A stretch of DNA of 32,000 nt from Candidatus Saccharimonadota bacterium (GCA_965227835.1 OZ245768.1:810001-842000), one strand, 5' to 3'. Counted from the stretch's first letter, positions 700 through 32,000 are shown. A program made the numbers and translations. Notes: generated by a model not told the origin, from the sequence alone.

Positions 700-953
700 G
701 AAAAAAACTTTTTTTAGTTAAAGTTAGTACTAATTAAAAGCATTTGAGTTTCGCTATCACGAAACAAGGCTGGAGAAAGAAAGTTTTTAATAAAAACAAG
801 TAGAATCTCCCGAAGGTGAAATACTTCGTTAAAAAAATAAAATTGAGTACAAGCTTTTTGGTGGTAACTTCCAAAAATTAAGGAGAGATCTCTCAATAAC
901 TTTGGACCTAAAAGCACACAAATTATATGTTTTTTGTGTGTTTTTTATTTTTT
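700..953 (+). ncRNA. candidate structured non-coding RNA or leader upstream of mazF (family unknown)
   Basis: No ATG and no ORF longer than about 25 codons in any plus frame, even with code 25. Several local hairpins: 748-765 gtttcg/cgaaac, 811-828 cgaag/cttcg, 855-878 tttttgg/ccaaaaa, and the 12-bp palindrome gagagatctctc at 883-894. It ends in its own terminator at 914-953. Confidence 0.25.
914..953 (+). terminator. intrinsic terminator immediately upstream of the mazF ribosome-binding site
   Basis: Stem cacacaaa (915-922) pairs with tttgtgtg (933-940), followed by ttttttatttttt. The GAGGAGG SD of mazF follows at 960-966. Confidence 0.6.
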
Positions 954-970
954 GATTTTGAGGAGGAAAA

Positions 971-1390
971 ATGAATTATGTAAATGAACTTAAAAATTGG
1001 TTTGAAGAAAAAATAAAGATAAATGAAAAATATATAAACTTTGAGTATAGGTATAAAAAGTGAGATATATGGTATGCAAATTTATGAATAAATATATGAA
1101 ATGAATTTAATAAAGTTAGGCCTGTATTGGTATTAACAAATAATAAATTTTCAAGATGAAATAACATTATAATAATACCAATTACAAGTTTAAAATCTGA
1201 AAAAAGAATACTAAACACAGATATAATAATTGATACAAAATTTGGTAAAAGACAAAGATCAATTATGAGAATTAACCATTTGAAAGATATTTCTAAAAAA
1301 AGACTTATAAAGAAAGTATGAAGAATAGATGATGATACTCTAAATAGACTGGGTATAAAATTAAAGCTATTGTTTGATATTAGAGAATAA
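971..1390 (+). CDS. mazF: MazF/PemK-family endoribonuclease toxin (type II TA toxin fold)
   Basis: Code-25 translation gives ...KKgDIWYANLgINIgNEFNKVRPVLVLTNN...IIIIPITS...RINHLKDISKKRL..., the hallmark GD(I/L)W..(D/N)L....G.E..K.RP.(L/V)V(L/V) and (I/V)PIT(S/T) motifs. Strong SD, 140 codons, TAA stop. In-frame TGA at 1061, 1085, 1097 and elsewhere fall at Gly positions. Confidence 0.85.
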
Positions 1391-1538
1391 AAAATGCCCT
1401 ACCAAATTGATAGGACTAGACTTCTTAGAGTCAAACAAAAATGAAAGCAAGAGCTTTCTAGTTCTCTTAGGAACAATGCAATTATAACACTTTTTACAAA
1501 AAAACAAAACTTTTTTAAATCTTAACTTTATTTTACCT

Positions 1539-4500
1539 ATGTTCCCAAAAGTAGACCCAAAACAATCTTTTCCAGAACTTGAAGAAGAAATATTGAAATT
1601 CTGGAAAAAAGAAAACATATTTGAAGAATCTATAGAAACTAGATCAAAAGATAATCCATATAGATTTTATGATTGACCTCCTTTCATAACAGGTACACCT
1701 CATTATTGAAGTCTTTTATCAAGTATATGCAAAGATGTAGTACCAAGATATTGGACTATGCAAGGTAAAAGATGTGAAAGAGTATGGGGATGGGATTGTC
1801 ACTGATTACCTATAGAAGAAAAAGTACAAAAAAAACTATGACTAGAATCAAACAAAGATATAGAAAAAGTATGAGTAGAAAAGTTTATACAAGAATGTTA
1901 TAGCTATACCAAAAATACATCAGCAGAATGGGAATGGTATGTGGATCATATTTGAAGATGGGTTGATTTCAAAAACTCATATAAAACAATGGATCAAGAT
2001 TATATGGAATCAGTAATATGGGTATTTAAAAAATTATGGGAAAAATGATTGGTATACAAAGGACAAAGAGTTTCTCTTTATAGTTGGAAACTATGAACTC
2101 CTATATCAAATTTCGAAGTAGCAATGGATGATTCTTATGAAGAAGTATCAGATCCAGCTATAACAGTTATGTTTCCTATAATTTGAAAGTCTGAAGAAGA
2201 AGAAAATGAAACCTCACCCCTAGCCCCTCTCCTTAGAGGAGAGGAGTTAGGTTGAGGTTTACCCGAAAACAGATGAATCAATCCTTGAGATTACCTAATA
2301 GCTTGGACTACAACACCATGGACAATACCAGCTCATATGGCATTGGCAGTAAACAAAGATTTGGAGTATTCCAAGGTTTTTTGTGATTGAAAATATTATA
2401 TATTAGCAACTCAAAGAATAGAGAGTGTATTTAAATGAAAAAACTATGAATTGATAGATTCTTTTATGTGAGAAAAATTAGTATGATTGAAATATCTACC
2501 TCCATTTGATTATTACTACAAAAACGAGAAATTAAAAAATGATGAAGAGTCTAAAAACTTCTTGGTTTATCATGCAGAATTTGTAACAGACAAAGACTGA
2601 ACATGAATAGCTCACGAAGCACCAGAATTTTGAGATGTAGATTTCTTGTTAGCCAAAGAAAAATGAGTACATATATCAAATGCAATAGATAATGAATGAA
2701 AATATACAGAAGAGATAGAAGACTATCAGTGAATACATTATAAAGAGGCAAACGAAATAATACCTGAAAAACTAAAAGAATTATGACTTCTTTTTAAAAA
2801 AGAAAGTATAAACCATAGAGTAGCTATGTGTCCTAGAAGCTGAACACCTCTAATATACAAAGTTCAAGATTCATGGTTTGTAGATATACAAAAACTAAAA
2901 GAAAAATTAATAAAAGAAAATGAGGGAATTTCTTGGTACCCAGAACATTTAAAACACTGACAATTTTTGAAATCAATGCAGGGAGCTCCTGATTGGTGTA
3001 TAAGCAGGACAAGATATTGGTGAACTCCTATGCCTATATGGATGGGTTACGATGAAAAGTGAAATGAAAAAGATATGAAAGTTTTTTGAAGTAAAAACGA
3101 AATATTTAAAGCAAGCAAAAAAAGTGGGATAATAAATAAATTTTTACTTATAAGGCACAGAGAGGCTATAAAAAATGTAGAAAGAGTAGAAGACTGGAGC
3201 TGAGATGAGAGACTGAATAAACTTACAGATAACTGAGAAAAACAAGCTTTTGATTTATGCAAAGAACTTTTGGAAAAAGAAGATATAGATGTAATTATAT
3301 CTTCTCCACTTGGTAGATGTAAAGATACTATGAAACCATATTTGGAGAAAACAAAAAAAGAAATTATTTTTGATGATAGACTCAAAGAAACTAATCCTTG
3401 AATTTTGGATGGTAAACCATACAAAGTAATAAATACCACCCATTGGGATAAACCTTTTGAAAAATGAGCTGAAACTGGAGAAGAAGTCTATGAAAGAGTA
3501 AAAAATCTTGTGGAAGAAATTAATAAAAAATATAAATGAAAAACTATTGCTTTGGTATCTCATTGATACCCTATAATTTGGTTAAATAAAGTATTTTCAG
3601 ATTTTGATCATAAAAATGAGGATGAAATAGAAAAAGTCTTCCCAGGCCAAGAATGATACCAAAATGTATATGTTTTTACAGACAATTCAAAAGCTATAAA
3701 TTTACATAAACCTTATGTAGATGATATAGTTTGGAAAGAAAATGGATTAACTTATAAAAGAATTCCTGAAGTTTTAGATGTATGGATGGATTCTTGAAGT
3801 ATGCCTTATGCAGGAGTTCATTATCCTTTTAAAATGAAGGATCAGACAGAGTACCAATCAGAAGAAAAAGAAAGAAGTCAAGCAAGGGGTCAATCAGAGG
3901 AAGAAAAAAATCAAGTAAGAGACCAAGCAAGGGGTCAAGACCCCTTGTCTAATGTGAATTGTTCATATAAATTAGAGTCTTCATCATTATTCAACAGCAA
4001 AAAAAAATTAACTTTTTTCGTAACAACGGTCACGCATAACTCACGAATCTCTGAAAGAATTAAGGGTAAAAAAATAAAAATTTGAGAACCTTTAGTATTG
4101 GATGACAAGCAACAGTATGAACTTACAAAGATATTTTTTAATATCAAATTTGAAAAAGATATTCATATATCTCAATATATAATAAATAAAGATCGTATAC
4201 ATTTCATTATCCATGTAGATAGCGAAGAAGAACTTACAAATTCGGTAAAAACATTAAAAAGTTTATCTACAAAGAAATTCAAAGAATTTTTATGAGTTGA
4301 AAATCAAGAACATTTTTCTTTATGGGCACAAAAATTTAATAGAAAGCAAATAAAGGATGAAAAATCATATAAAGATATATCTGAATATATAATAAACAAC
4401 AGAAAAAAACACGGTGAAAGTAGTAAAGAATTCGAACAGAAGTTGAGAAAACTCATAGACAAGGGGTCTTGACCCCTTGAACAACCCTGACCCCTTGAAC

Positions 4501-6572
4501 AATCTAAAAGTTTTAACAACAACAATAACATTGAATTAAAAGGACTTACATACCCTGCTGATTTCATAGTAGAATATATTTGACAAGTAAGAGCCTGGTT
4601 TTATGTAATGCATGTTGTGTGAGTAGCATTATTTGATAAAAGAAGTTTTACAAATGTCATTACAACTTGAATAGTAAATGGATCAGATTGAAGAAAAATG
4701 TCTAAATCATATTGAAATTATCCAGATCCAAAATGAACAATACAAAAATATTGAGCAGATGCTATAAGGTTTTATATGATAAACTCTCCCCTTATGCATT
4801 GAGCAAATATGAGTTTCAAAGAACAATGAGTACAAGAAGTTGTAAAAAAAGTAATCTTACCTCTATGGAACACATATAGTTTTTTTACAACTTATGCAAA
4901 TATAGATAAGTTTGAACCAAAGAAATGAAATATTTACTATTGTAGACACTGAGAAACTGAAAATAATGAAAAAATGATAATGAACTGATGAGATGCAGAA
5001 TCAGAATTAACACAAAAAGGTATAAAACAAGCAAAAAAAGCATGAGAAAAATTTAAACTAACTTGAGTAAAACTGGATAAAATAATAAGCTCTCCAAAAA
5101 AAAGAGCAATAGATACAGCAGAATTGATAAAAAAGCAATTAGGGTATGAAGTAGAAATAGAAGTAAATGAGAATCTAAACGAACAATTATCATGAGAATT
5201 TTTATGATTGTCCTTAGATGAAATAGCAAAAAAACTATGAATAGATATAAGGGATAAATATTTGTTGAGAAAAAGATATAAAGACAAAAAATATAATAAA
5301 ATAGAGGATATATCTGATTTTGATGAAAAAGTAGCTAAAGAATTTGAAAAAATTAAAAATACCTACAAAGATAAAAACATTTTAATAGTATCTCATTCAG
5401 GAACTTTTAGACCAATAAATAGAGTTTTATCTTGATTGAGTATAAAGGAGGCACACTATATTTGTCATTCTTCTCCTAATTCAAAAATAATAAAACTTCC
5501 GAATGAAAAAAGAGAAAACCTACTTGATAAATGGGTAATATCAGAAACAAATAAGTTGATAAAAGATGTGGAGAAAGCTATGGAAAGCTATAAACTAAAC
5601 GAAGCAACAAGACCAATAGCAAAATTTATGGATAAACTTACAAACTGGTATATAAGAAGAAGCAGAAAAAGGTTTTGGAAATCTGAAAATGATATAGATA
5701 AAATACAAGCTTATGAAACTCTACATGAAGTACTTGTAGAACTGACTAAAGTAATAGCTCCTTTTATGCCTTTTATAAGTGAGCATATATATAAAAACTT
5801 AACCGGTAATAAATCACTACATTTAGATAGTTTTCCTAATCCTGTGGATAGTTTCATATTGGAAAACTTAAATCAAGATATGGATATGTGTCAAAAGATA
5901 ATAAATTTATGACTAGCATGGAGGCAAAATCACTCAATAAGAGTTAGACAACCATTATCAAACATAAGTATATGAGAAAAACTAGATGATTATTATATAG
6001 AGATAATAAAAGAGGAACTAAATGTAAAAGAAGTGATAATATTAGAACCAAGTAAGATAGCTAAAAAAATCTGTAAACCAAATGGTAGAATTATATGACC
6101 AAAGTTTGGTAAAGATGTAAAGTTTATAATACAAGAAGCAAAAGCTGGTAGGTTTATGGAAATAGACGAAAATAGTGTGAAAGTTTGAGATTTTGTTTTA
6201 GAGTGAGAAGAATTTGAAATAGCTTTTGAACCATGAGAAACAGAATATGAGATAGAATCATGATTTGGAATGGTAATAGCTATGGACTGAAATATAACAA
6301 AAGATTTGAAACAAGAATGATATGCTCGTGATATAGTCAGGTATATTCAAGAAGCTAGAAAAGAAGCATTATATGAAGTGAGTGATAGAATAAGTATAGA
6401 ACTAAATACTTCAGAAGAAGATTTGAAAAAGGCAATAAAAAATTTTTGAGATTATATAGAAAAAGAAACCTTATCTAAAATAAAAAATAATCTAGAAAAT
6501 CCTGACTTAGAAAAGAAATTTGAAATAGATAACAATAAGTTTGGCATAAAAATAAAAATTGACAATAAATAA
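1539..6572 (+). CDS. ileS: isoleucyl-tRNA synthetase, type 2 (eukaryote-like), 1677 codons with three large in-frame insertions
   Basis: One TAA/TAG-free frame runs from ATG 1539 to TAA 6570-6572. Motifs seen: [15 protein letters not shown] (HYG 1701-1709, G=TGA), WTTTPWT, [17 protein letters not shown], [18 protein letters not shown], [17 protein letters not shown], KMSKS (4695-4709), YgADAIRFY, and the anticodon-binding [15 protein letters not shown]-track pieces 3801..4085, 4098..4295 and 5436..5912 are in-frame fragments of it. Confidence 0.9.
2210..2259 (+). repeat. 50-bp GC-rich imperfect palindrome inserted in frame in the ileS editing-domain loop
   Basis: aacctca-cccctagc-ccctctcc-ttaga-ggagagg-agttagg-ttgaggtt. 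The outer arms (aacctca/tgaggtt) and inner arms (cctctcc/ggagagg) pair. GC is much higher than the surroundings. It encodes [17 protein letters not shown] just before the WTTTPWT motif. Confidence 0.7.
3132..3683 (+). other. histidine-phosphatase (PGAM/CobC-like, branch 1) domain inserted in ileS, copy 1
   Basis: FLLIRHREA (RHG-type motif with R-H), LTDNg[17 protein letters not shown] (SP..R motif), DDRLKE, ALVSHg (catalytic His). It sits between WgTPMPIW and LHKPYVDD...DVWMDSgS, where canonical IleRS has only a short linker. Confidence 0.7.
3878..4502 (+). mobile_element. REPtron-like unit in frame within ileS: a RayT/IS200-like Y1 (HUH-type) transposase-like domain flanked by inverted GC-rich hairpin repeats
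   Basis: Left end: caagcaaggggtcaa (3878-3892), then caagcaaggggtcaagaccccttg with the 20-bp palindrome at 3928-3947. Right end: palindrome caaggggtcttgaccccttg (4460-4479), the exact reverse complement of the left one, then a repeated tgaccccttgaacaa (4470-4484 and 4488-4502). The internal peptide [12 protein letters not shown]...DRIHFIIHV...[12 protein letters not shown]...[12 protein letters not shown]...[16 protein letters not shown] parallels RayT motifs (WFFTV, HxH..., W.prFw...I, Y..YI..NPvKHG). Confidence 0.6.
4929..5498 (+). other. histidine-phosphatase (PGAM/CobC-like) domain inserted in ileS, copy 2
   Basis: IYYCRHgETENN (RHGE), [37 protein letters not shown]. It is inserted between the [13 protein letters not shown] helix and the [11 protein letters not shown] anticodon-binding region. 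Confidence 0.7.
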
Positions 6573-9294: not shown

Positions 9295-10092
9295 ATGTGA
9301 GTTAATGGCAAAAGTAAAATAGTAAAATGAAATAATCTTGAAAAAGTTCAAAGTACAAACATTTCAGAACAAACATCACAAACTACCAGGGATAATTCAG
9401 AAGATGTAAAAAGAATCTTAGAAATTGAAAGTGCTAATAAAGCATGCACAAATTTTTTACAGGGATCTGAAAAATTAATAGGAAATGTTCAGGCTAGAGA
9501 GTATAAGGGGGATTCAAACAGAATTATAATTTTTTCAAAAGAACCTAGTATACGAGAAGAAAATTATGTAAGCAGTAAAACTGTTGAATTAAGGGGAAAA
9601 TTAAAAATAGAACCAATTCAATCATGTTTTTCTCCAAGTAAAAAAACTTTTAATTTTAAATTAGTTCATGAAAATCATTACAATGTAGATATAGGTGAAG
9701 ATTTAATTCCAAAAGTTAGAAAATATTTAGATAAATCTGATTTATCATTATTTAAATTACTACTTAAAAAATATGAAGAAGAAAGGACCCCTAGGTTTAT
9801 AGAAGAAATAGAATTATATAAGAAACAGATAAAAGCTATAGAAGAAGAAAATAATGAAGATGAATCTAAAAAATTACTAGATATAAAGTATTATAAAAAA
9901 TTAATAAAACAGCTTGAGGAAGAACTAAAAGTACTAAAAATGGTTAAAAATTCCAAATTAGAAAATATAAAATATGAATTTATACAAAGTTGACATAGCC
10001 AGTATTTTTCAATTACCCCATTAAGAAAGGTTATTAAAACAAAAAAAAGAATATCCAAGTTCTTGAAAAGAAGAATAGTTAAAAAATCCTAA
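9295..10092 (+). CDS. hypothetical protein with a Lys/Glu-rich coiled-coil-like C-terminal half
   Basis: Code-25 frame from ATG 9295 to TAA 10090-10092. TTGACT at 9235-9240 and TATAAT at 9257-9262 upstream. No family recognised. Confidence 0.55.
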
Positions 10093-10907
10093 TTACTAAA
10101 CAAGCTATACCTTAATATACTTAAAAAATCTGTATTATCTAAGGTTATTTCTAAACTTTGCTTATATTTTCAAACCTGTGCACTTGATATTATATCTGAA
10201 ATGGGTTTGGTAAAAAATTCTCAAGAATTCAAAGATTTAAGTTTGTAATTTAGTTTATTATTTGGATCAAGATTTGTTATTATTAAATAATTTTTACTAT
10301 AAGTATCCAAAAATCAACTAGTACCATTTATATTTATTTGAGATAAAAAACTTCAATCTGATTTTTTACCATATCAAGTAGAGCTAGAACCTATAGAAGA
10401 ATTTCATCAAATTCAATCTCAATTTTCAGAAACAATATTCCAAGCCATTTTACTCTGATCAGTAAAAGAACCTCAATTTAATATATCAAGACTTATATTT
10501 TCTACTTTATCTTCGCTGGTTAAAGATAAATAAAAAAGAGGAATAATAATTTGTTCAAAACTATAAAGCTCTCAAGTATAATTGTTTGTTTTAGAATTTA
10601 GATCATATCAAATAAGAACTTCTTTTTTATTATTTGGATCATCTCTGAGTATCTTTGAATCGTCAAAAGATTCTCATAGGATTATTTTATTATAAACTCC
10701 ATAAGAATATTTTTTTATATCAAAAAGCGCAAGTTCCATTGCTGCCTCTGCTCAGGCATAAGCTTGTAAATAACTAAATTGCCCTCTGTTATCTTTCATT
10801 TCTCTAATAACTAAATTTAAAATTCAAGTTGTTACTACAATTAAAAAACCTATTATCATAAGAGTAATAAGTATTGTGTATCAAGAATTTTTAGATTTTA
10901 ATCTCAT
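10089..10907 (-). CDS. large minor pseudopilin (GspK/PilX-like, lacks Glu5)
   Basis: N-terminus MRLKSKNSgYTILITLMIIGFLIVV has a prepilin-like leader and hydrophobic helix but Thr instead of Glu at +5. 272 codons, TAG stop at 10089-10091. Last gene of the pilus operon. Confidence 0.6.
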
Positions 10908-10947
10908 ATTTTATAATTGGAATAATATGATAAAAGATTAGAAGAAA

Positions 10948-11538
10948 TTAATTTGTTTTTATAAACCTCTCGGAAATAGTAGTTTGAAAAACTAACTTTG
11001 ATTTCTTTATAAGACTTGTTTTAATTCATTTCTTTGTAGCTGGTCTCATAGTAAAATTTATAACAAGTTTTCTTTTTTGTTCTCACATTAGGGTAAAGTT
11101 TAAATCTTCCAAAGCCACCCATGAATTTGTAAGCATACTTTGATTTTTTACTAAAAAACAATTATTTTTTAAAAGAGTGCAAATAGATTGCATATCAGAA
11201 AAATTAACTCTACTATAATTTCAAGATACATATCAGTCAGAAAGATAATATATATCATTTCATATTTTTAAAAAATTTCAATTTACTATATTAGAACTAT
11301 CAGATAAAGAGTAGTTATCAACTATATTTTTTTTAACTCAGTTTATTCAATCTATTCTTACTGATTCAGATATAGTTGATGTAACGTTTTTTACATTTTC
11401 TTGCATTTGTCTGTTTATATCTATTTTGTTTGTAAGATCTAAGCTAATACTAAAAATTTGTAAAACAGAAACCATCACAATCATAAAAATACTAACAGCG
11501 ACTATTATCTCTAATAATGTAAATGCTTTTTTATTCAT
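10948..11538 (-). CDS. pseudopilin with prepilin-type N-terminal cleavage/methylation domain
   Basis: MNKKAFTLLEIIVAVSIFMIVMV (FTLLE motif). Code-25 extension of track ORF 11347..11538 down to TAA 10948-10950. Confidence 0.7.
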
Positions 11539-11609
11539 AAAAATTTATTTTTTAAATATAAAAAATCTTCAACTTTCAGCTTTATACTTTTCAACTTCAC
11601 ACTAATCCC

Positions 11610-12230
11610 CTAGTATCTATTAAAATTAGTCAAAATAGTATTTATTTCAAATTCTCTATATTTTTTAGAATACCAAACTACCTTTGATTTTAGTTTAAAT
11701 GCATTATTCATAACATTTCAAGAAGAATCTTTTAACTCACTAAGAACTACATATCTATACATATTAGTTTTCTTATCATCATCTAGACAATCATGGCTAT
11801 ACAAACTTGTATCTTTTTTTATACAAAGAGCATAGTCATTAAATTTTCAATTTTTGAAATCATCCTGAGAATCAGATGTAAAGAATTGATTTCAGTCAGA
11901 CTTTAAAACAAAAGGATAGTTAGATGAAGAAAAATCATTTTCTAGTTTATAATAAACTCAAAGCTCAAATTTTTTTGTGAAGTCATTGCTTGGATTTGGT
12001 ATCCAGTTGTAATTATGATAAGTTTCATAGTTATAATCACGAATGTTTCTAATTATCTCAATACCCTCTCTTGCTAAATTACTAGCAATTATACTATCTT
12101 TGTTTGTAGCATTTATATTTATACTAGAACTTATAAGCATAAAAATAGAAGCCATACCCATAGAAAATATAAATATAGATATCATTACTTCTATTATAGA
12201 AAACCCATAAGAATTTGAGTTTTTTGTCAT
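11610..12230 (-). CDS. pseudopilin with prepilin-type N-terminal domain
   Basis: MTKNSNSYGFSIIEVMISIFIFSMG (G/FSIIE). Code-25 extension of track ORF 11958..12230 down to TAG 11610-11612. Confidence 0.7.
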
Positions 12231-12272
12231 AAGTTAAAGATTTTATTAAATTTGTAATGTAGGTTTTATTTT

Positions 12273-12833
12273 TTAATAATCACTTATATAAGTTTTTGTA
12301 TAATAATCTAGTGTTTTTCTCAAATTAGAACTAGCTCATTTATAGGAATATTCTATTTCTATTTTATTATCACTGACTACTAAATCGCTTTTTACATTTT
12401 CAAAATCAAAATAATGTCATTTTCAAGATATAGCTTCAAACAAAAAAAGAACTTTTGATTTTCATTCTATTTTTTCAATCCAAATATCTTGTCAAAGGTC
12501 TATTTCTTTTAAAATCAAAGAATCATCATCAACTACTATTTGTGATCAGGTTTGATAACTATATGGATATGAAAATATTTTAACTATATTTTTGTTGTCC
12601 TCATCAAAATAAACTCAAATGGAAAGATTTCAAGCAGAAGAACTAATTCAATGTATTGCCATATTTCTTGATTCAGATAATGTTTTTGATATATTTTTGG
12701 AAGCATTTCTTAAATCAGCTTTTTTAATAAAAAGATTGTAAGGAGCATAGGTCATAGTCATCATAATTCATAAAATAGAAATAACTATCATAAACTCTAT
12801 CAATGTAAATCATTTATTATTTAAAAACTTCAT
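12273..12833 (-). CDS. pilin/pseudopilin with canonical prepilin-type N-terminus
   Basis: MKFLNNKgFTLIEFMIVISILgIMM is the canonical G/FTLIE class III signal, with the cleavage-site Gly encoded by TGA. 186 codons, TAA stop at 12273-12275. Confidence 0.75.
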
Positions 12834-12858
12834 ATTTCATATATTAAAAATTTTTTAT

Positions 12859-13986
12859 TTATCAAACAGCTTGTGTTACTTGTAATATAGCACCAAAAAC
12901 CGCAAAAGCAAACCATAAAACAAATAAAGCTGCAATCACTATCGCTAAAGGTTCAATCCATTTTGTAAGATTTGATAAGGAATAATCTACTTCTCTACTA
13001 TACTGATCAACTATTTTTAGATTTATCTCTTCCATATTAGCTGTTTTTTCTCAAATTGCTAACATTTGTAGATATGAGTTGGGGAAGTAAAATTTATCTT
13101 CATCTACTGCCCTCATAGATTCAACTATTTTTTGTCAAGATTCAACTTTTTTCATTATTTCATTAAAAAGCTGTTCATAAATATAGCTTCCAGAAGATTT
13201 TCAAACTAGTTTCAAGACTTTTATAGTACTAACTCACGATCAGATAAGGTTTCACATAGAAGAGGATATATTTGTAATAATATAGTTTCTGTATACTTTT
13301 CAAACGAGAGGTAGAGATAAAAGCATGTTATCTAACTTTTCTTTTCAAGATTCAGTTGATTTATATCATACAAAAAAGACAAAACCACTGAAAAGAAAAA
13401 AAATTATAAATAAATAATAATTTTTTAAAAAGTCTGATGTGGCAACAAGAGCCTTGGTTGTCATTGGTAATTCAGCTTCAGAATTTTCAAAAAGTGGCAT
13501 CAAAGAAGGAATAACATATATTAAAACTATAACAACAGCTGATAGTAAGAATATAAATATTATAAGAGGATATGTAAGAGAACTTTTTATCTTTTTTTTC
13601 AATATATCGTTTTTTCTTATAGATATAGCTAATGATTCTAAGGATTTTCACAAGCTACCTGTTGTTTCTCATGATTCTATTATAGATATTTCATGTTTTC
13701 CAAAAATAGATGGATTTTTTTTCATAGCTTTAGAAAGAGAATCTCAACTAGAAATGAATATAAGCATTTCATTTATTTTTTGTTTAAAATAAACATTATC
13801 TAGCTTCTCTGTAACACCACTTAGTGTTTCTCACATTCAAACACCTGAATTAAGCATAACTGCTATGTATTCATAGAAATTATACTTATCTTTATCTCAA
13901 ACTTTTTTAAATAGAGTAAAATTTTGCTGAGACTCTAAATCTTCATATCCTTGAGTTTCAATGTTTTCATAATTTTCTTTTTCCAT
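12859..13986 (-). CDS. pilC: type IV pilus / type II secretion platform protein (GspF/PilC family)
   Basis: Two GspF-type repeats, each with ESgE..G.L-like signatures (IIESgETTGSLgKSLESL, and MLAIgEKTANMEE). Three hydrophobic segments. The frame is continuous from ATG 13986 to TAA 12859-12861. Track ORF 13366..13602 is an internal fragment. Confidence 0.85.
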
Positions 13987-14006
13987 TTTTTTGCTATTTT
14001 TACTTA

Positions 14007-14576
14007 CTAATTTGATAATTCATTATCAATTATATACATATCAAGAGGTAGGTTTATATTATATGGTCATGATTTTTCAATAGGAAAATTTAGACTTGTT
14101 ATAAAAAAGCTATACTCATTATCTTTGGAAGTAAGGTATTCTAAAAGATTTTTCAAGCTAAATCTATCATATACTCTAATTTTTAAATTTATACTAACTT
14201 TTTGAAATCATAGCTCAGATTTTTGAGCTTCACTAAAAGATATATTATCTAGGTATAAGACTATTCTTCAAGAGCTTTTATTTACTTTTTCCACATAATC
14301 ATTTATATAGAGGATTATCTTATCTTCACTGAATTCTCCTATAAAATTTTTTAGATCTTTTGTTATAATACTTTGCTTATCTTCCAAATCTTCTTTGAGT
14401 TTATTAAGTTCTTCCAAACTAGAATCAAGAGATTGCTGTTTTTCTATTTTTGTATTTTTATCATCTAGGTTAGTTTGTAAATCTATATAATATACCCTAG
14501 TAAAAAATATTAATACAAAAAAAGAAAACAGTATAACTAGCAAGACTAGAAATTTATTATTTTTTAAATCGTTCAT
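14007..14576 (-). CDS. PilO-like pilus assembly protein (single N-terminal TM helix plus coiled coil)
   Basis: MNDLKNNKFLVLLVILFSFFVLIFF, then a coiled coil, then a small C-terminal domain. The call rests on operon position between the PilN-like and PilC genes, on topology and context rather than sequence motifs. TAG stop at 14007-14009. Confidence 0.5.
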
Positions 14577-14607
14577 TTTATTAAAAGTTATTGAATTATA
14601 AAATATT

Positions 14608-15279
14608 TTAGTTTTGATTTAATATATCCTGTTTCTTCTTTTCAAATTCCTGTTTTCTTTTTTCTTGTTCTAATCTAAGCATTTCTTGATCTTCTAATTT
14701 CTTAGTTTCTATGTCTTGGAGAATTTTCTCAAGATTATCTTTTAAATCAAGTTCAATACTAAAAACATTATCAACTCCTTCGTTTTTAGTAGATATGTTT
14801 TTAATCAAAGATAAATCAAAAAGGGACTCTAAATTTTGGTTTTCTCTATATTTACTAATAAACTCTGAAATTTTTTGATAATGTAATTTTCCAGAAGAAT
14901 CGCTACTAGCAGTAGCAGAAAGTGATAATTTTCATGATGAATAATTAAATCATTTAAAGTTTATAGAATATATTCTGCTTATTTTCATAATATGGTCTAT
15001 AAATAAGTTTATATTTGAATAATCATTCAGTTTTTGGATAGATTTTATATTTGATTTATATAGTCTAAAAATAAGAACTTTAGAATCTCTTTCAAGTTCT
15101 TTTATAGAAGCTTCTTTGAGGTTTATTTCATCATCAAGAATTTTATTATTGTTTACCAAATTCATGTTGTAAAAATAAAGTCCTGCCGTTGCAAGCAAAC
15201 TAAATACAAAAAATAACACAGACAAAACTAGATAGTTTTTTCTTTTTGGTCTATAAGGTTTTTTTGGTTCTAAATCCAT
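14608..15279 (-). CDS. PilN-like pilus assembly protein (short cytoplasmic N-terminus, TM helix, coiled coil)
   Basis: Track ORFs 14950..15279 and 14608..14808 are in the same frame, joined through TGA codons. The sequence is MDLEPKKPYRPKRKNYLVLSVLFFVFSLLATAGLYFY followed by a coiled coil. The call is based on topology and context. Confidence 0.5.
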
Positions 15280-15361
15280 TATGATATTTTTAGGTATTAA
15301 ATTATTTCAATAATGAACAAATATTACTGCTGTAATAATAACATAAATGATAAGAAAAAAC

Positions 15362-15394
15362 AAAAAAGTCTAAGAAAAATACCTAGACTTTTTT
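15362..15394 (-). terminator. bidirectional-looking intrinsic terminator downstream of the 15418..16146 gene
   Basis: aaaaaagtcta-(11 nt)-tagactttttt. A 6-7 bp stem flanked by an A-run and a T-run. Confidence 0.45.
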
Positions 15395-15417
15395 GAAAAA
15401 TCTTTTTATAAAAATTT

Positions 15418-16146
15418 TTATTTTACAAATTCCTTAAGTTTAAATCATTTTTCATTTATTATTCTAGCATTACCGTTGTTGTATTCTTTAATCACATATA
15501 ATCCTTTTTTAAAGGCATATTCTCTGGAGTCTTTAGGTATACTTCTAGCTCAAACTAATCAAAAAAGTTTATACTTAGAATATTCTGGAAAATGTTTTCT
15601 AAAACTTGGGAGTCTTTTTTTCACAAATTCATCTATATGTCTTTTGCTAAGCCTTGTTTTTACCTCTGTAACAAAAACTTCATCTCAATTCACTCATACT
15701 ATATCAAATTCAGCTTTTCAAGGTAGTTCAAGATTTCTGTATATTTTTGTAAGGTCTTTTCATTTTTCTTCAAGGAGTTTTTCAAAATTATCAAATACTA
15801 AATCTTCACTTATTTCTCCTTGGGTTACTCACATACCTATAAGTATACTTCATGTTTTTTTCAACTGCTCGTCTGTTTTTTTCAATTGCTCGTCTGTTTT
15901 TTCTTGAGCTCTTTTTAAATCTTGAATTTGTTCGTCTGTCTTCTCTTGAGCTCTTTTTAAATCTTGAATTTGTTCGTCTGTCTTCTCTTGAGCTCTTTTT
16001 AAGTCTTGAATTTGTTCGTATGTTTTTCTAAGTTGTTCATCTGTTCTTTCTTGGGCTCTTTTCAGTTCTTGAATTTGCCCATCTGTTTTTTCTTGTGAAA
16101 TAGCTAACCTTGCTACTATTTCTTGTATTTCTTGGATACTTATCAT
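15418..16146 (-). CDS. coiled-coil repeat protein with a C-terminal PD-(D/E)xK-like (DUF3782-like) domain
   Basis: The N-terminus has tandem (Q)IQDLKRAQEKTDE repeats. The C-terminus has AEFDIVgVNgDEVFVTEVKTRLSKRHIDEF, a D...(D/E)xK-like pattern typical of DUF3782-type proteins. Code-25 extension of track ORF 15850..16146 down to TAA 15418-15420. Confidence 0.55.
15855..16090 (-). repeat. in-frame tandem repeats (2 x 21 bp, then 3 near-identical x 42 bp, plus diverged copies)
   Basis: ttctcttgagctctttttaaatcttgaatttgttcgtctgtc is repeated from about 15900 to 16025. tttttttcaa(c/t)tgctcgtctg occurs twice at about 15855-15897. Confidence 0.85.
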
Positions 16147-16346
16147 AATTATTTTTTTAGTTAATAATGAAAATAATTTTTTTAAGGACTTCTACAAAAT
16201 TACTTCGTTATGACAAAAATAGAGATTTTTTAGATAATTTTTACGAATAAAATTTTTTGTTTATTTATTTTAAGCCAAAAATTTCTCTGTTGAAAATTAG
16301 CAAAAAAGATCATTTTTTCATAGATGTTAATTTTAAAGAAGTCCTT

Positions 16347-24537: not shown

Positions 24538-24842
24538 AACATGAAGTAAAGTTACATAAAGATAACATTTATAATAATAATTTTAACATAAATGTCAAAT
24601 TTATTTTTAAAATTCACACATAGAGTGTATAATACATAATGTGCATAGATGGAGATATCCAATGAATAAATTTATTCTAATAGTGTTAGATATCTTTTAT
24701 TGATGAAATTATGAATTTAAATCCTATTGATGCTGCATAATATCTTATAGTTATGGGCTAATACCAAAAATGTTGCTCAAATTTGCATTATTAAAATATA
24801 TATGATTTAATTATTATAACTTTATATTTTAATTTAAATTAT

Positions 24843-25640
24843 ATGCCTCTAAATGAAAATTTTAACATTATTGAAAACAAAAAGAATTTACTACAAGACA
24901 ATATTTATTTTGGTAATGCTAGAGATTCTTTAATCGAAGGAAGAAGTGATTTATCAAAAGATGAAATTGATGAAATTATGAATATGAATCCTATTAATGC
25001 TACAGAATATCTTAGAAGCATGAATGCTAGAGATTCCTTGATAGAAGGAAGAAATGACCTGTCAAAAGATGAAATTGATGAAATTATGAATATGAATCCT
25101 ATTAATGCTACAGAATATCTTAGAAGTATGAATGCTAGAGATTCCTTGATAGAAGGAAGAAATGACCTGTCAAAAGATGAAATTGATGAAATTATAAATA
25201 TGAATCCTATTAATGCTGCAGAATATCTTAGAAGCATGAATGTTAGAGATTCTTTAATCGAAGGAAGAAATGATCTGTCAAAAGATGAAATTGATGAAAT
25301 TATGAATTTACATCCAAGAGAAGCTATTGAAGAATTACTTGGAGAATATTACATAGTTCAGCCTTGAGATTCTTTATGGAAAATAGTAAAAAAAAGATTA
25401 TGAAAATCAGATATTTCTGATTCGGAAATTGTTAAAGAAATAAATTTTTTAGTACACTTAAATCCACATTTAAACATAGATACTCTTAGAGTTGTTAATT
25501 GAGTATTAGAAAATTGAAAAGACTGAATACCTTGAGATTTAATTTTTCCATGAGATAAAATTAAACTAACTTGAACTTCAGATGATATAAAATCATATTC
25601 TAATCATCAATTAAATAATTTAAGAAATGAAATTAAATAG
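24843..25640 (+). CDS. LysM-domain protein with four N-terminal 36-aa tandem repeats
   Basis: The track ORF 24843..25367 continues through TGA: YIVQPgDSLWKIVKKRLg...IVKEINFLVHLNP is a LysM signature (Y.V..GD(S/T)LW.IA). TAG stop at 25638-25640. Confidence 0.75.
24915..25340 (+). repeat. about 3.9 x 108-bp in-frame tandem repeat (NARDSLIEGRNDLSKDEIDEIMNMNPINATEYLRSM)
   Basis: Units at 24915-25022, 25023-25130 and 25131-25238, with a diverged unit from 25239 on. The inner two units are nearly identical. The outer two share the tctttaatcgaagg variant. Confidence 0.9.
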
Positions 25641-25649
25641 TATTATCCT

Positions 25650-28600
25650 CTACCTAATAACATAAGAAGTATCTAGTCTAAAAAGAAGCTCTCAAATAAC
25701 TTCGCTAGAATTACTATCTGCAATTTCTAAAAGAATATAGTCTCAATAACTAGAATAATTGATATTATAATCACTAGAATTTGGTATAGATATCCTAGAA
25801 TCTTTTAGTATAGAAAATACAGGTTTTTTCAAAGAATCTGTTTTTTTATAAATAGCCAAACTTCACGGATTATATTCTACAATATCTGGAAGTTTATAAT
25901 AATCAAAACTATCCGAAACAAACTTGAAATATAATCAAGAAGTTGTTATATCATCAAAATCATCTATTACAGCTATATTGCTATCTGTTTCTCAAAACTT
26001 TAATTCTTGAGAAAATACAGGATTCCCAGATAAATCAGAAACTATAAATTCTAAGAAACTATCTTCATTTATAGAAACATCTACACTATAGGAAGGATCA
26101 GAAATAATTATTTTTCAAGTATTTTCATTTATACTAAAAGCTAAATTGTCTTCTACACTAACATCAACTAAATTACTAACCTCATTATTTAAACTAAAAT
26201 CAAAATCTCAAGAATAAGTATCCACTTTTGTAGTACCACTTGAAGTTTCAAGTCTTTTAATCACTCATCATCTAAATCTATATAAATTTATAGGCTCTCA
26301 AGATAAAGACTCATTTATAAATCAAGAAACTTCAGAACCAGAATAAGAAGATATTTCCGGTATAGGAGTATATACCTCAAAATCTATATCTTTAGAATTA
26401 GTATTTCAATTTAAATCTGTGATAACAAATTTAATCTTTTTACTAAATATATCTTCAAATTCACCAAAATTAACTCTCAAACTATTTTCAGTTTTTCTAA
26501 CTTCATATTTATCCTCATCAATTCATTCTATAACAAAACTAGATATATTAGAAATTCCAGTATCCTCATATACATTATCGGTTAAATCAACAAGTTTTTG
26601 TGAATAAACAGGTACTTTAATTTTACTATTAATATCTATTTCAGGAGCATATTTATCGGCAGCTTTTTGTGGAGAAAGAAGAACTCAAAGTGTTTTTGTA
26701 GAGAATACATTTTGTTTGAATCATGAAAGCCTAGAATAGAAATAATCATTTTGTGTATCTAGGTTTATAGAATATCTATCAGATTTTAATCCTAAATCAT
26801 ACAAAATATAAGATTTTATCTTTCTAAAATCAAGCCTTGATTCACTATCATCATAATATCTTATTCAAATATTACTTGATGTGGAAGTATCAAAAGAAGA
26901 GTTTATTTTTATTTCTGAACCAAAAAATATAGGTTTACCTAAATGACTATTAATTTCATTTCATTCTAATGTAATATCATCCAAAGCAGGGACATAAGCA
27001 TCTCAGGAAATTCAAATAACTTTTATATAATTATCAAACTCTATATTTGTGTGAGCTTCTATTTTTAAGTTATTTGAAACTTGTGAATCTCAAACTAGAT
27101 AGGTAATTTCAGTAGAATTATCTCAAGCATATATCCTAGTAGAAGCAGGTATATTAGCTATAGAAAGTTCACTTATACTATCCTTTATATTTTGAAGTCT
27201 TTTAGTTTTTAATCTAACTCAAGGTATATTATCTCAAACACTGTAAACATATGCCAAGTTTTTTCTTTTTACAATTCATCAAGTATTATAAATAGTAGAG
27301 TTATCATCACTAGAAACAAAAGAATCTACTATGCTAAGTTTTATATCCCCAGGTATATATCAAGGATTATCTTCATTTAAATATTTGTCTATTCTATCAT
27401 AGTATTCAAGTCTATAGTTAGAAATCTCATTATTTCTCAAAGCTGAAAAACCTAAATTTAGAAAACTATCTGAAACTACACTCTCCCTTACATTATTTGG
27501 ACTTTCATAAAAAATATCTCCGTTTAAAAATCTATTTGAATCAGAATCAAGTATTAAAACATCAGAATAATAAATTCAATCTTCTGATTCTGTTAAATTT
27601 TCTTTTAAATATAAATCCTCTTCAACAGAGTATAGAATGTCTAAATCAGAATCTAGATCAATGTCTATAGATGTAATAGTTTCATCTCCACTTAATTCAT
27701 CTAAATAATCAAATAATTTGTAGTTTATTTTTGTGTCTCATTCTTCCTGTATTACATAAATTCATTCATATTTTCTCTGATAACTAGAATTTTTTGCCTG
27801 ACAGCTACCTCCACTAGAACCTGATGAGTTTAGAGATGCTAGATATTTACCTGTATCTGATGAAGCTAAATAGTTATTTTCATTTTTAGCATTTTTAATA
27901 CTTCTATAACTTCTTTTTGAATAATTATTTGTATTTGAGGATGCACTTAAATCATTTTCATATATAAGACCGGCATTATTTTTGAAATCTCTAATTATAT
28001 ATTCTCAATCTTCTTTTAGTTTCTTGCTATCCATATATTTAGGATTTACTAAAGACTTAGCTCTATTTTTAAAGTTATCGCTGTATTTATCAAAAGCTGA
28101 ATTATAAGCTTCTATATGGTTAAAATTATCATTTGATATCATTTTATATGAAGACTCTTTTTTTATTTCTTTCAAATCATTTTTCATCTCATCTGTTTTT
28201 TTTATTTCTTTTTTTATTATAGATTTAAGTATTTCAAATTTTTCTAGGTTTTCTTGTTTTAAATCTCTTATAATTTTGTCTTCCTTTGAATAAGTATATC
28301 TATTAACAGTATCAAAAGTATTTCTAAACTCTCTAAATCTAGGATCTTTTATTATACTATCTTTTACTAATTCTTGGTTTATAAGAGATAGTAAAGATGC
28401 ACTCGTTAAAGTATCTTTTGAATTTGTGTCTATATATTTGGTTAAAATATTAAATCATTTAGAAACATAGTTTGCAAAAAGCTCTCACAAAATAAGAGAA
28501 GTTTCTCCTCAGTTTCAAAGTTCTATATTTGCATCTTTTCATTCAACTGAACCAAAAGGTTCCATATCAGGAAGTTTAAAATTTAGTGCATTGGTAAAAT

Positions 28601-31600: not shown

Positions 31601-32000
31601 TTGTATTGTTTTTCAGGGTAACATTTATTTCAACTATATCTTTGTATTTAAGATTTCATCAATTTAGGTCTGTAAAAGTTTTTAATACATCTATTCAAAT
31701 TTGAGAAGCAAACTCACTTTTTATAAAATCTGTTTGCTTGGTATGATTTTCTTTTGTGGGGTCTATATCGGGATCATATGCTAGTTTTTCAAACATCAAT
31801 CTTTCAAGCATATTTACTGGTACTTCTGGAACTTCATCACTACTAGGTTCTTTTTTATCATCTATTCACCTAAAATAAAGAGCTCACATTTCATTTGTAG
31901 AATTTCAACTAAGGCTTATACCATATCAAGAATTTATGGTATTTTTTTCAAAATCTAGGCTTCAAGATTTTCAGTAAAAAATGTTTAAATCTCAGTTAGA
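25650..32000 (-). CDS. giant surface/secreted-type protein, 3' part only (more than 2116 codons in window; start lies beyond 32000)
   Basis: The minus-strand frame with codon ends equal to 2 mod 3 has no TAA/TAG from 32000 down to TAG 25650-25652. It joins track fragments 29922..30116, 28878..29285 and 28005..28187 through many TGA codons. It contains a Gly/Cys/Pro-rich hydrophobic block and an LP-rich block. No family recognised. Confidence 0.8.

Follow-up and report, generated by a model that had tools for sequence, protein, structure and literature searches.

Anatomy and evolution of histidine phosphatase domains nested within an isoleucyl-tRNA synthetase of a UGA-recoded bacterium

An otherwise complete isoleucyl-tRNA synthetase (IleRS) harbours two catalytically intact PhoE-like histidine phosphatase domains within its surface loops, and the whole forms a single polypeptide of 1677 aa. 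The gene, a type-2 ileS, lies at 1539-6572 on the plus strand of a 32,000-nucleotide stretch of DNA (the window). The arrangement is not an oddity of one genome: inserts occur in 80 of the 120 nearest IleRS clusters, they include NUDIX, serine hydrolase and GNAT domains, and valyl-tRNA synthetases (ValRS) are also affected. The swappable enzyme inserts of IleRS and ValRS are apparently a widespread, undescribed set, and no published description of phosphatase domains nested in IleRS was found. The anatomy and evolution of the nested inserts are presented here with high confidence.

The host is a UGA-recoded Gracilibacteria-type bacterium. With translation table 11 the window contains two ORFs of at least 200 aa, compared with 24 under table 25. 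The ileS frame is open from 1488 to 6569, with a Met codon at 1539 and a TAA stop at 6570-6572, and includes 69 in-frame TGA codons read as Gly. Code 25 (Gly) is favoured over code 4 (Trp) because TGA falls at conserved glycines: those of the RHG motif in the second phosphatase domain, the SHG motif in the first, and YDGPPF and other conserved positions of IleRS. The sequence P0001 differs from the window protein solely by W for G at the 69 TGA positions.

Several features identify the synthetase as type-2 (eukaryote-like). Pfam recognizes tRNA-synt_1 (E = 7.5e-119), two stretches of His_Phos_1, Y1_Tnp, Anticodon_1 and DUF5915 in the whole protein. The AWTTTPWT motif of the CP1 editing domain is present, as is KMSKS, which is found in 119 of 121 sequences including the window protein. 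The canonical HIGH signature (H-x-G-H) is absent from the window IleRS, which reads HYGS at this position. HYGS is shared by 84 of the 121 relatives, with or without inserts, and HYGH is found in 23. The predicted structure of a relative has its best Foldseek matches to P. megaterium IleRS2, the yeast and Candida IleRS, and 1ILE.

The two phosphatase domains are referred to by their insertion sites, B and E. Alignment to the insert-free relatives P0016 (1029 aa), P0009 and P0002 places insert B at 3117-3701 (plus strand; aa 527-721, numbered from the Met) and insert E at 4920-5504 (plus strand; aa 1128-1322). The original prediction of two different loops was therefore correct in position, and its extents (3132-3683 and 4929-5498) were slightly too narrow. 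Taken alone, segment B matches PF00300 with 96.2 bits (E = 2.6e-27) and segment E with 122.8 bits (E = 1.8e-35); both pass the Pfam gathering cut-off of 21.7 bits for His_Phos_1. An open frame of about 190 codons would not be expected by chance at 26% GC with two stop codons, and the HMM E-values decide the matter.

Site B follows WGTPMPIW...GSKNEIF and precedes NLHKPYVDD in the second half of the Rossmann fold. Comparison of the relatives P0033 and P0044 indicates that insert B stands in for a native hairpin of about 20 aa. Site E lies between the end of the catalytic/SC-fold region (a stretch of 17 residues) and ENLLDKWVI, where the anticodon-binding domain starts.

The motifs that had drawn attention to these segments (RHRE and RHGE, SSP..R...T, and VSHG or VSHS) are all present, and the catalytic Arg and His residues are retained. 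In copy B the active site consists of R539 and H540 (3153-3158), N546, R593, E617 and H675 (3561-3563). The corresponding set in copy E is R1136 and H1137 (4944-4949), N1142, R1189, E1215 and H1286 (5394-5396). Copy B has RHR rather than RHG; G, A or S occupies this position in relatives. Across 26 B and 63 E inserts the R-H...N...R..T...E...H residues are kept at 90% or more, with a mean pairwise divergence among B or E inserts of 59-66%. We infer that both domains are active phosphomonoesterases. The AF2 model of P0033, a relative with both B and E (residues 1-1200; pLDDT 86.5, pTM 0.78), predicts a confident alpha/beta fold for both domains (pLDDT 87-97 for B and 84-96 for E).

The earlier description of the domains as PGAM-like holds for membership of His_Phos_1 and fails for identity with the cofactor-dependent mutases (dPGM), as the best NCBIfam dPGM models reach 34-74 bits where 225-421 are required. 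Aligned to 1FZT, the E type reads E-Q-L-S-G in place of the E-R-x-Y-G of dPGM. By our reading of this alignment it lacks equivalents of the dPGM-specific Arg90, Tyr92 and Lys100, which argues for a phosphatase rather than a mutase. CobC alpha-ribazole phosphatase (TIGR03162; 84.6 bits for E and 64.6 for B against a cut-off of 162.9) and SixA (TIGR00249; 53.7 against 74.5) were likewise rejected. Both inserts stay below every NCBIfam equivalog cut-off, and the sequence therefore holds no clue to the substrate. The closest solved structures by sequence are small free-standing branch-1 histidine phosphatases, and hundreds of such proteins are retrieved when the embedded domains are used for profile searches. 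The embedded domains thus group, by sequence, with generic PhoE/CobC/PspA-like phosphatases and not with phosphoglycerate mutases.

The original prediction had called for a survey of ileS in other code-25 genomes; in related genomes, fused homologues were recovered from hundreds of independent assemblies. Of the 120 nearest IleRS clusters surveyed, 40 lack inserts altogether. As optional modules, the inserts occupy five fixed hotspots in the IleRS of Gracilibacteria and allied CPR bacteria: NUDIX at A, His_Phos at B, serine hydrolase at C, GNAT, Y1 transposase or His_Phos at D, and His_Phos at E. They occur in 17 presence/absence combinations, patchy on the core tree, and extend IleRS up to about 2100 aa. 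The NUDIX box (A) and the Ser/Asp/His motifs (C) are likewise kept. Some proteins have multiple or tandem copies, with three clear His_Phos domains at most. Related ValRS also contain nested His_Phos at a position homologous to site B, after WWGH.IPVW. In an exhaustive search of representatives, all long matches beyond mere tandem His_Phos repeats were IleRS or ValRS, and the closest GTDB loci were within IleRS in ten of ten cases. A metagenome scan returned 20 loci in IleRS, 50 standalone loci and none within another large host protein.

The divergence of the two copies noted originally reflects distinct, site-specific subfamilies, B and E; the B type is related to the ValRS-nested domains. 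This rules out an origin of the two copies by duplication inside the window gene. E-type domains are also encoded by free-standing genes (approximately 200 aa) in recoded genomes, unlinked to ileS, and in the domain tree these genes fall inside the E clade. One of them adjoins PRK/GtrA genes.

Two other hotspots of the window gene are occupied. Insert D (3834-4550, plus strand) is an in-frame IS200-like Y1 transposase domain (Pfam Y1_Tnp, E = 1.1e-8) at a site that holds GNAT or His_Phos domains in relatives. It is edged by GC-rich hairpins, including a perfect 24-nt inverted repeat (3928-3951 / 4456-4479). The hairpin pattern has two matches against 0.01 expected, and the hairpins fold. Hotspot A, the entry to the CP1 editing domain and the site of a NUDIX domain in relatives, contains a mini-insert at 2199-2276 (plus strand). 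Site map, alignment and folding show it to be a GC-rich palindrome of 26 codons read in frame, with a folding energy as single-stranded DNA of -16.5 kcal/mol (z = -7.4).

The inserts are under purifying selection, and homologous recombination through the highly conserved flanks of the synthetase adds, removes and replaces them as cassettes. Over the co-ancestral stretch of an E insert ω is 0.12, compared with 0.03-0.06 in the core. Alleles whose cores match at 95-100% can differ so far at one site that their inserts are 30-40% identical and saturated at synonymous positions. Between P0088 and P0090 the flanks are 95-100% identical and the B insert is 25-40% identical, with no blastn similarity of the insert over approximately 520 bp. 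Between P0033 and P0044 the E insert has a saturated pS of 0.75, compared with a core dS of 0.25-0.55, a breakpoint falls within this insert, and the native hairpin is allelic to the B cassette.

What the domains do for the cell is a separate matter. We tentatively favour functional coupling to the synthetase, at somewhat short of an even chance: the phosphatases would be accessory activities acting on a phosphorylated tRNA 3' end or a nucleotide nearby. Tethered to the synthetase, the domains could act on the spot, their target being a phosphorylated ligand that takes part in the aminoacylation cycle. The likeliest ligand would be tRNA with its 3' end blocked, either by a 2'/3'-phosphate or by pyrophosphate; the alternative is a nucleotide of the adenylate or alarmone type. 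[quoted passage not shown] The NUDIX, serine hydrolase and GNAT inserts of relatives might then be sister modules for cleaning or repair, and the fast turnover of cassettes may follow shifts in selection, perhaps imposed by toxins or inhibitors that target tRNA or the synthetase. That the nested domains had IleRS and ValRS as their only large hosts in these searches favours coupling. Against it stand the close relatives without inserts, the free-standing E-type genes, the mobile DNA at hotspots A and D, the tandem and multiple copies, and the lack of an equivalog match.

The main rival, possible if somewhat doubtful, is that the phosphatases are passengers, housekeeping enzymes lodged in permissive loops of a large, essential and constitutively expressed protein. 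Their activity would be kept by a cellular job of their own that has no link to aminoacylation, IleRS would serve as a platform for expression and folding, and recombining ileS alleles would shuffle the inserts. The free-standing E-type genes inside the E clade, one of them beside PRK/GtrA, fit this explanation, as does the generic PhoE-like character of the embedded domains. As a third of the close IleRS relatives do without inserts, aminoacylation does not depend on them. Hotspots A and D accept non-enzymatic mobile DNA in the window gene, and the loops may therefore be simply permissive. However, passengers would not be expected to have IleRS and ValRS as their only hosts found, nor four hydrolase or transferase families to converge on these two paralogous synthetases. 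The inserts also cluster around the catalytic core, and housekeeping enzymes do not usually maintain such deep allelic diversity at one site.

The patchy distribution, the replacement at sharp boundaries, the repeated and tandem copies and the evident mobile element in frame at site D would also suit selfish cassettes that spread horizontally between ileS and valS alleles through conserved flanks, much as inteins do, and bring the cell no benefit. Such a cassette would survive only if in frame and harmlessly folded. We consider this unlikely, as a neutral passenger should decay, whereas the catalytic residues persist over very deep divergence at ω of approximately 0.12. Moreover, neither nuclease or mobility genes nor flanking repeats are found at B or E, and the inserts do not differ in base composition from the remaining gene.

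Like inteins and CPR rRNA introns, these inserts occupy conserved positions in an essential gene, and it could be supposed that an intein-like splice or a self-splicing intron removes them to leave a mature IleRS of normal size. This is highly improbable. No Hint or intein Pfam domain is present, and the junctions (...KASKKSG/...SKAINLHK at B and ...EPKKGN/...LPNEKREN at E) lack the Cys/Ser/Thr ... His-Asn-Cys/Ser/Thr residues of splicing. Rfam at gathering score detects no group I or II intron and no other RNA family in the whole window. The inserts are open, in frame and constrained at the protein level, and the AF2 model of the relative P0033 presents them as integral domains.

Frame errors or a chimeric assembly that fused phosphatase genes to ileS fragments, for which no support was found and which are suspected solely because the genome is recoded and the gene fragmented under the standard code, can be dismissed almost entirely: the identical protein occurs on a 1.49-Mb contig and a second contig of 17.9 kb, the P0032 cluster draws its 224 members from many assemblies, P0158 is on six contigs, more than 80 diverged orthologues share the same junctions in an unbroken frame, and the IleRS sequence is collinear on either side of each insert.

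The nested domains resemble several known systems in part. PhoE (Geobacillus stearothermophilus 1EBB/1H2E), CobC, the phosphoserine phosphatase PspA (4IJ5) and the short S. pombe PGAM (1FZT) belong to the same Pfam family, are of similar length (approximately 180-200 aa) and have the full R-H...N...R...E...H set. These are independent polypeptides, whereas B and E are nested within the fold of another enzyme. In the bifunctional RNase H/acid phosphatase (Rv2228c, M. smegmatis RnhC; NF005567) a CobC-like His_Phos domain is covalently joined to a nucleic-acid enzyme. This model is the top NCBIfam match for insert B and the third for E, at 70-72 bits against a cut-off of 326. However, Rv2228c/RnhC is an end-to-end fusion that involves no synthetase, and B and E are nested insertions in one.

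Inteins and other in-frame mobile insertions share with B and E the in-frame location at conserved sites of essential genes, the patchy distribution, and the spread or replacement through homologous flanks; site D of the window gene itself contains a transposase in frame. Unlike inteins, B and E have no Hint fold, splice-junction residues or homing endonuclease; they appear to be retained in the mature protein, with an unrelated catalytic site under selection.

Further parallels are within the synthetases themselves. The class Ia modules (CP1 editing, the Zn-binding CP and the leucine-specific domain of LeuRS) are also domains set in a loop of the Rossmann fold of a working host, with a hydrolytic accessory activity beside the synthetic site, an activity that is predicted for B and E. 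The E type occurs embedded as well as free-standing, as do the editing domains AlaX and YbaK/ProX. CP1 and its like are universal and ancient modules devoted to amino-acid proofreading. The inserts described here are instead lineage-restricted, optional and combinatorial members of generic enzyme families, exchanged as alleles. The domains appended to eukaryotic aaRS (GST, WHEP, EMAPII and UNE, as well as EPRS) were likewise gained stepwise and are unneeded for charging. Those additions are terminal or in linkers, mostly non-catalytic and fixed by lineage, whereas the domains described here are bacterial, nested, polymorphic and, by prediction, catalytic.

The window has a GC content of 26% and holds 24 open reading frames (ORFs) of at least 200 aa under translation table 25 versus 2 under table 11. 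The isoleucyl-tRNA synthetase (IleRS) gene ileS lies on the forward strand in an open frame from 1488 to 6569. It has its first Met at 1539 and 69 in-frame TGA codons, ends with a TAA at 6570-6572 and encodes 1677 aa. The code is read as 25 (Gly) and not 4, because TGA falls on universally conserved glycines, including the RHG Gly of the second phosphatase copy and the SHG Gly of the first. The Pfam domains follow the order tRNA-synt_1, His_Phos_1, tRNA-synt_1, Y1_Tnp, tRNA-synt_1, His_Phos_1, Anticodon_1 and DUF5915. Scanned singly, the two phosphatase segments match His_Phos_1 with E-values of 2.6e-27 (copy 1) and 1.8e-35 (copy 2). The original prediction of two phosphatase domains nested in one IleRS is thus right, as are its coordinates, and the matches are far above chance; the single 1677-aa ORF is unbroken through both under code 25. 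The host parts retain KMSKS and the TTTPWT editing motif. The HIGH signature reads HYGS ('TPHYGS', about 1700-1715, forward strand), as in 84 of 121 related IleRS (HYGH in 23), and this state is independent of insert presence in the same set. HYGS lacks the final His of the catalytic signature. An ORF for a MazF/PemK-type toxin (833-1387, forward strand; Pfam E = 7.7e-22) is directly upstream of ileS.

Separate genes joined by frame errors were considered as the source of the fusion. The database twin of the window protein, P0001, differs from it only by W instead of G at the 69 TGA codons and is known from two contigs, one of them 1.49 Mb long. Fused forms recur in many independent assemblies, including a protein cluster of 224 members (P0032) and a protein found on 6 contigs of up to 1 Mb (P0158). 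Pfam and inspection of the sequence revealed no Hint domain or splice-junction residues at the inserts, and the window contains no Rfam family and no tRNA gene. Splicing and artefact are essentially excluded.

Insert boundaries were defined by alignment with 120 relatives and the insert-free references P0016 (1029 aa), P0009 and P0002. Compared with insert-free relatives, the window ileS has four extra pieces, all on the forward strand, at four of five insertion hotspots (A to E). Hotspot A carries a mini-insert of 26 codons, a GC-rich palindrome recognized by alignment (2199-2276). Alignment and Pfam together delimit His_Phos insert B (3117-3701), Y1 transposase insert D (3834-4550) and His_Phos insert E (4920-5504). 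Insert B falls in the latter half of the Rossmann fold, between WGTPMPIW...GSKNEIF and NLHKPYVDD. Insert E is just before ENLLDKWVI, where the anticodon-binding domain starts. The alignment confirms that the copies occupy two different positions of the synthetase. Catalytic Arg and His had been predicted to persist in both, and the full catalytic sets are present: R539, H540, N546, R593, E617 and H675 in copy B, and R1136, H1137, N1142, R1189, E1215 and H1286 in copy E.

Among solved structures, the best matches are S. pombe PGAM (1FZT), PhoE, CobC and the phosphoserine phosphatase PspA. Both domains belong to His_Phos_1 and to none of the dPGM, CobC and SixA equivalogs; neither approaches any NCBIfam equivalog cut-off, and in our reading of the alignment the dPGM-specific substrate residues are absent from the E type. 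By sequence, the nested domains are generic short PhoE-like phosphatases, and their substrate is not readable at that level. The domain tree sorts by insertion site. All B inserts cluster with inserts of valyl-tRNA synthetase (ValRS). All E inserts form another group, in which genes from recoded genomes that are free-standing (190-250 aa) also fall. Because these clades are site-specific, B and E are regarded as separate acquisitions. The copies are as clearly diverged as was first noted (25-33% identity), and this divergence, with the different site-specific clades, rules out a B/E duplication within the window gene. The contexts of the standalone E-type genes provided no functional lead, being too short or unrelated to ileS.

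Inserts are optional, lineage-wide and confined to five fixed hotspots. The survey covered the 120 closest IleRS clusters, named Gracilibacteria or Absconditabacteria by their sources, of which 40 are insert-free (about 1027-1045 aa) and 80 carry inserts in 17 combinations, the longest protein reaching 2143 aa. Hotspot A holds NUDIX domains in 26 clusters and GNAT in 1, hotspot B His_Phos domains in 28 (some in tandem), hotspot C a PF06821 Ser hydrolase in 24 (some in tandem), and hotspot E His_Phos domains in 63. At hotspot D the Y1 transposase is found in the window and in P0001, GNAT in 3 clusters and His_Phos in 2. Tallies of co-occurrence (A with E, C with E, B with D) ignore phylogeny and carry no weight here. 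Among GTDB representative genomes, scanned with a narrower alignment and therefore biased to E-type relatives, all ten closest loci are TGA-recoded, have a GC content of 24-28% and come from organisms listed as Gracilibacteria, Patescibacteria or Peribacteria. The IleRS ORFs there span 1244-1932 aa, with architectures up to A-B-C-C-E, and bear out the hotspot pattern.

An exhaustive search of representatives with the E insert identified ValRS proteins, one of them named Candidatus Sungbacteria, in which one to several His_Phos domains are nested. Several of these domains directly follow WWGH.IPVW, which corresponds by homology to site B. IleRS with nested domains also turned up in non-recoded organisms. 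Neither this search nor a scan of metagenomes with B-type domains yielded a large host other than IleRS and ValRS; the remaining matches are short ORFs or genes that stand alone. A profile built from the domains nested in ValRS matched only generic standalone proteins of the PhoE type and no new hosts. A word-indexed search with the window B insert alone gave 5 weak standalone matches and missed P0001 itself, so it is a poor guide to distribution. Metagenome contigs L090-L098 carry insert-bearing IleRS ORFs of 1422-1425 aa with a GC content of 37-39% and zero in-frame TGA; unlike the recoded relatives, these are open under the standard code. One ValRS (P0182, 1538 aa) contains ETLHATSL in two places and a stretch of GTCRDAKSCVST, in addition to two nested His_Phos domains. 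Both peptides resemble short palindromic repeat elements translated in frame.

The presence of inserts is patchy even between sister sequences. In some pairs the synthetase core differs by 3-10% and the insert at the same site by 50-65%, with knife-sharp boundaries. In the DNA of two related loci, L001 and L002, identity is 94.6% and 90.7% on the flanks of the B insert and there is zero detectable similarity across it. In these loci, ileS and an upstream DUF5655 gene (8694-14129 of L001, 5784-11162 of L002) are 91-95% identical, and the neighbour genes are about 75-79% identical or else not alignable or not syntenic. This pattern suggests that the whole ileS region was recently exchanged horizontally. 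Sites without B hold a native hairpin of about 20 aa; therefore, cassette and hairpin are alternative alleles. No direct or inverted repeats above chance flank B or E, which also show no base-composition anomaly of the kind that marks recent foreign origin; only the D insert has such repeats. Homologous recombination via the conserved synthetase flanks is the likely route of exchange. A type IV pilus or T2SS-like cluster is located at 10092-15369 (reverse strand). It includes several ORFs whose N-termini are of prepilin type and a PilC/T2SS-F protein at 12862-14022 (E = 2e-44). The cluster is compatible with DNA uptake, which would feed ileS recombination.

The D insert is a recognisable mobile element, REP/RAYT-like. 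It encodes an IS200-like Y1 transposase (Pfam E = 1e-8), translated in frame, and has a perfect 24-nt inverted repeat (3928-3951 and 4456-4479), each arm of which is a GC hairpin (CAAGGGGTC..GACCCCTTG). In relatives this hotspot holds GNAT or His_Phos domains. The mini-insert at A folds as single-stranded DNA with -16.5 kcal/mol (z = -7.4); its palindrome has one copy in the window and is absent from the 88 loci compared, and relatives carry a NUDIX domain at the same hotspot. Given the mobile DNA at D and the palindrome at A, the hotspots are at least permissive loops that trap mobile DNA.

Other repeats of the window are within ORFs. A tandem repeat at 24915-25307 (forward strand; 108-nt unit, 3.6 copies, 94% matches) is contained in the ORF at 24795-25637 and encodes 36-aa units (NARDSLIEGRNDLSKDEIDEIMNMNPINATEYLRSM). 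Repeats at 352-480 include a 24-nt unit in 4.6 copies (357-467), with PRINPRVP-type repeats on the minus strand. Those at 15853-16090 have 42- and 63-nt units (15886-16090), and there long ORFs overlap on both strands (15374-16219 forward, 15421-16191 reverse). On the reverse strand, the ORF at 25653-32000 is very large (more than 2116 aa) and continues past the window end.

The catalytic residues are at least 90% conserved in both the B and the E family, with mean pairwise differences of 59-66%. The NUDIX box of A inserts and the Ser-hydrolase triad of C inserts are conserved as well. Nei-Gojobori estimates under code 25 were obtained for two relatives, P0033 and P0044. The IleRS core has dS 0.25-0.55 and ω 0.03-0.06, and the co-ancestral third of the E insert has dS 0.39 and ω 0.12. 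In the other two thirds pS is saturated at 0.75 and pN is 0.32, so that ω is not calculable. Because of this saturation, against the core dS, the two-thirds block is taken to be a much older allele imported by recombination, with a breakpoint inside the insert. Synonymous saturation is confined to the variable block, which rules out rapid in-place evolution as the source of insert divergence. An AlphaFold2 model of a relative with both phosphatases (P0033, residues 1-1200, 46-sequence alignment) has a mean pLDDT of 86.5 and a pTM of 0.78. B (pLDDT 87-97) and E (84-96) are modelled confidently, and the host part superposes on type-2 IleRS structures.

On the evidence above, the domains are real, folded, catalytically equipped and selected, and the hosts found are restricted to IleRS and ValRS. 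We tentatively put first the reading that tethering matters, with the phosphatase working beside the synthetase on some ligand of the charging cycle that bears a phosphate. As substrate, a tRNA whose 3' end is blocked by a phosphate or pyrophosphate would be the most attractive candidate. Toxins of the toxSAS family pyrophosphorylate the CCA end and stop aminoacylation (10.1101/2021.04.30.441581; PMC11559606). A NUDIX pyrophosphatase followed by a phosphomonoesterase would make a logical two-step repair. Alternative ligands may be nucleotides such as Ap4A, or alarmones.

The main rival, a reading that is possible but held with somewhat less conviction, is that housekeeping enzymes settled in permissive loops without any mechanistic link to the synthetase. 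It draws on the free-standing E-type genes, the 40 of 120 clusters whose IleRS is insert-free, and the mobile DNA at other hotspots. A bolder and unlikely reading is that IleRS and ValRS of Gracilibacteria and other CPR are scaffolds into which exchangeable enzymes of immunity or repair are built, and that these undo toxin or antibiotic modifications at the point of use. The phosphatase, NUDIX pyrophosphatase, Ser hydrolase and acetyltransferase would then act on 3'-pyrophosphorylation or phosphorylation of the CCA end, N-acetylation of aminoacyl-tRNA and mimics of the aminoacyl-adenylate. An arms race would maintain the cassettes, keeping deeply diverged alleles that recombine between strains. 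A purely selfish cassette is more doubtful still: the dynamics fit, but the active sites are conserved.

Few known enzymes are as conserved as the aminoacyl-tRNA synthetases. To our knowledge, their bacterial architecture is regarded as essentially fixed, editing and anticodon modules aside. Here an essential synthetase is nearly doubled in size by up to five unrelated and apparently catalytically intact loop enzymes. These are polymorphic, and close relatives exchange them by recombination. Should their substrates be tRNA ends or adenylate-type ligands, the inserts would link translation with repair or detoxification in a new way and would make up a new type of defence locus. Should they be passengers only, they form a natural large-scale domain-insertion experiment, and the five permissive IleRS sites may be useful for engineering. 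Either way, the substrate of the nested phosphatases is a testable biochemical question.

The fusion has already been picked up by automated pipelines. One protein is called 'isoleucyl-tRNA synthetase/bisphosphoglycerate-dependent phosphoglycerate mutase' by JGI. At NCBI, forms with inserts are labelled no more precisely than 'class I tRNA ligase family protein', an example of how Gracilibacteria proteomes are mis-annotated. That no IleRS with embedded phosphatases had been described holds for open-access papers and bioRxiv, where no published account of an IleRS or ValRS with a His_Phos or NUDIX domain nested in it was found; subscription journals may hold one. A survey of domain insertions mentions the LeuRS editing domain as the only synthetase case (PMC13114784). 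We rate the nested-enzyme IleRS as belonging among the multi-domain synthetases. It resembles the class Ia enzymes in the nesting of modules (CP1) in the catalytic domain, and the editing domains in occurring both embedded and free-standing. Unlike these, the IleRS inserts are optional, combinatorial, derived from generic enzymes and allelic.
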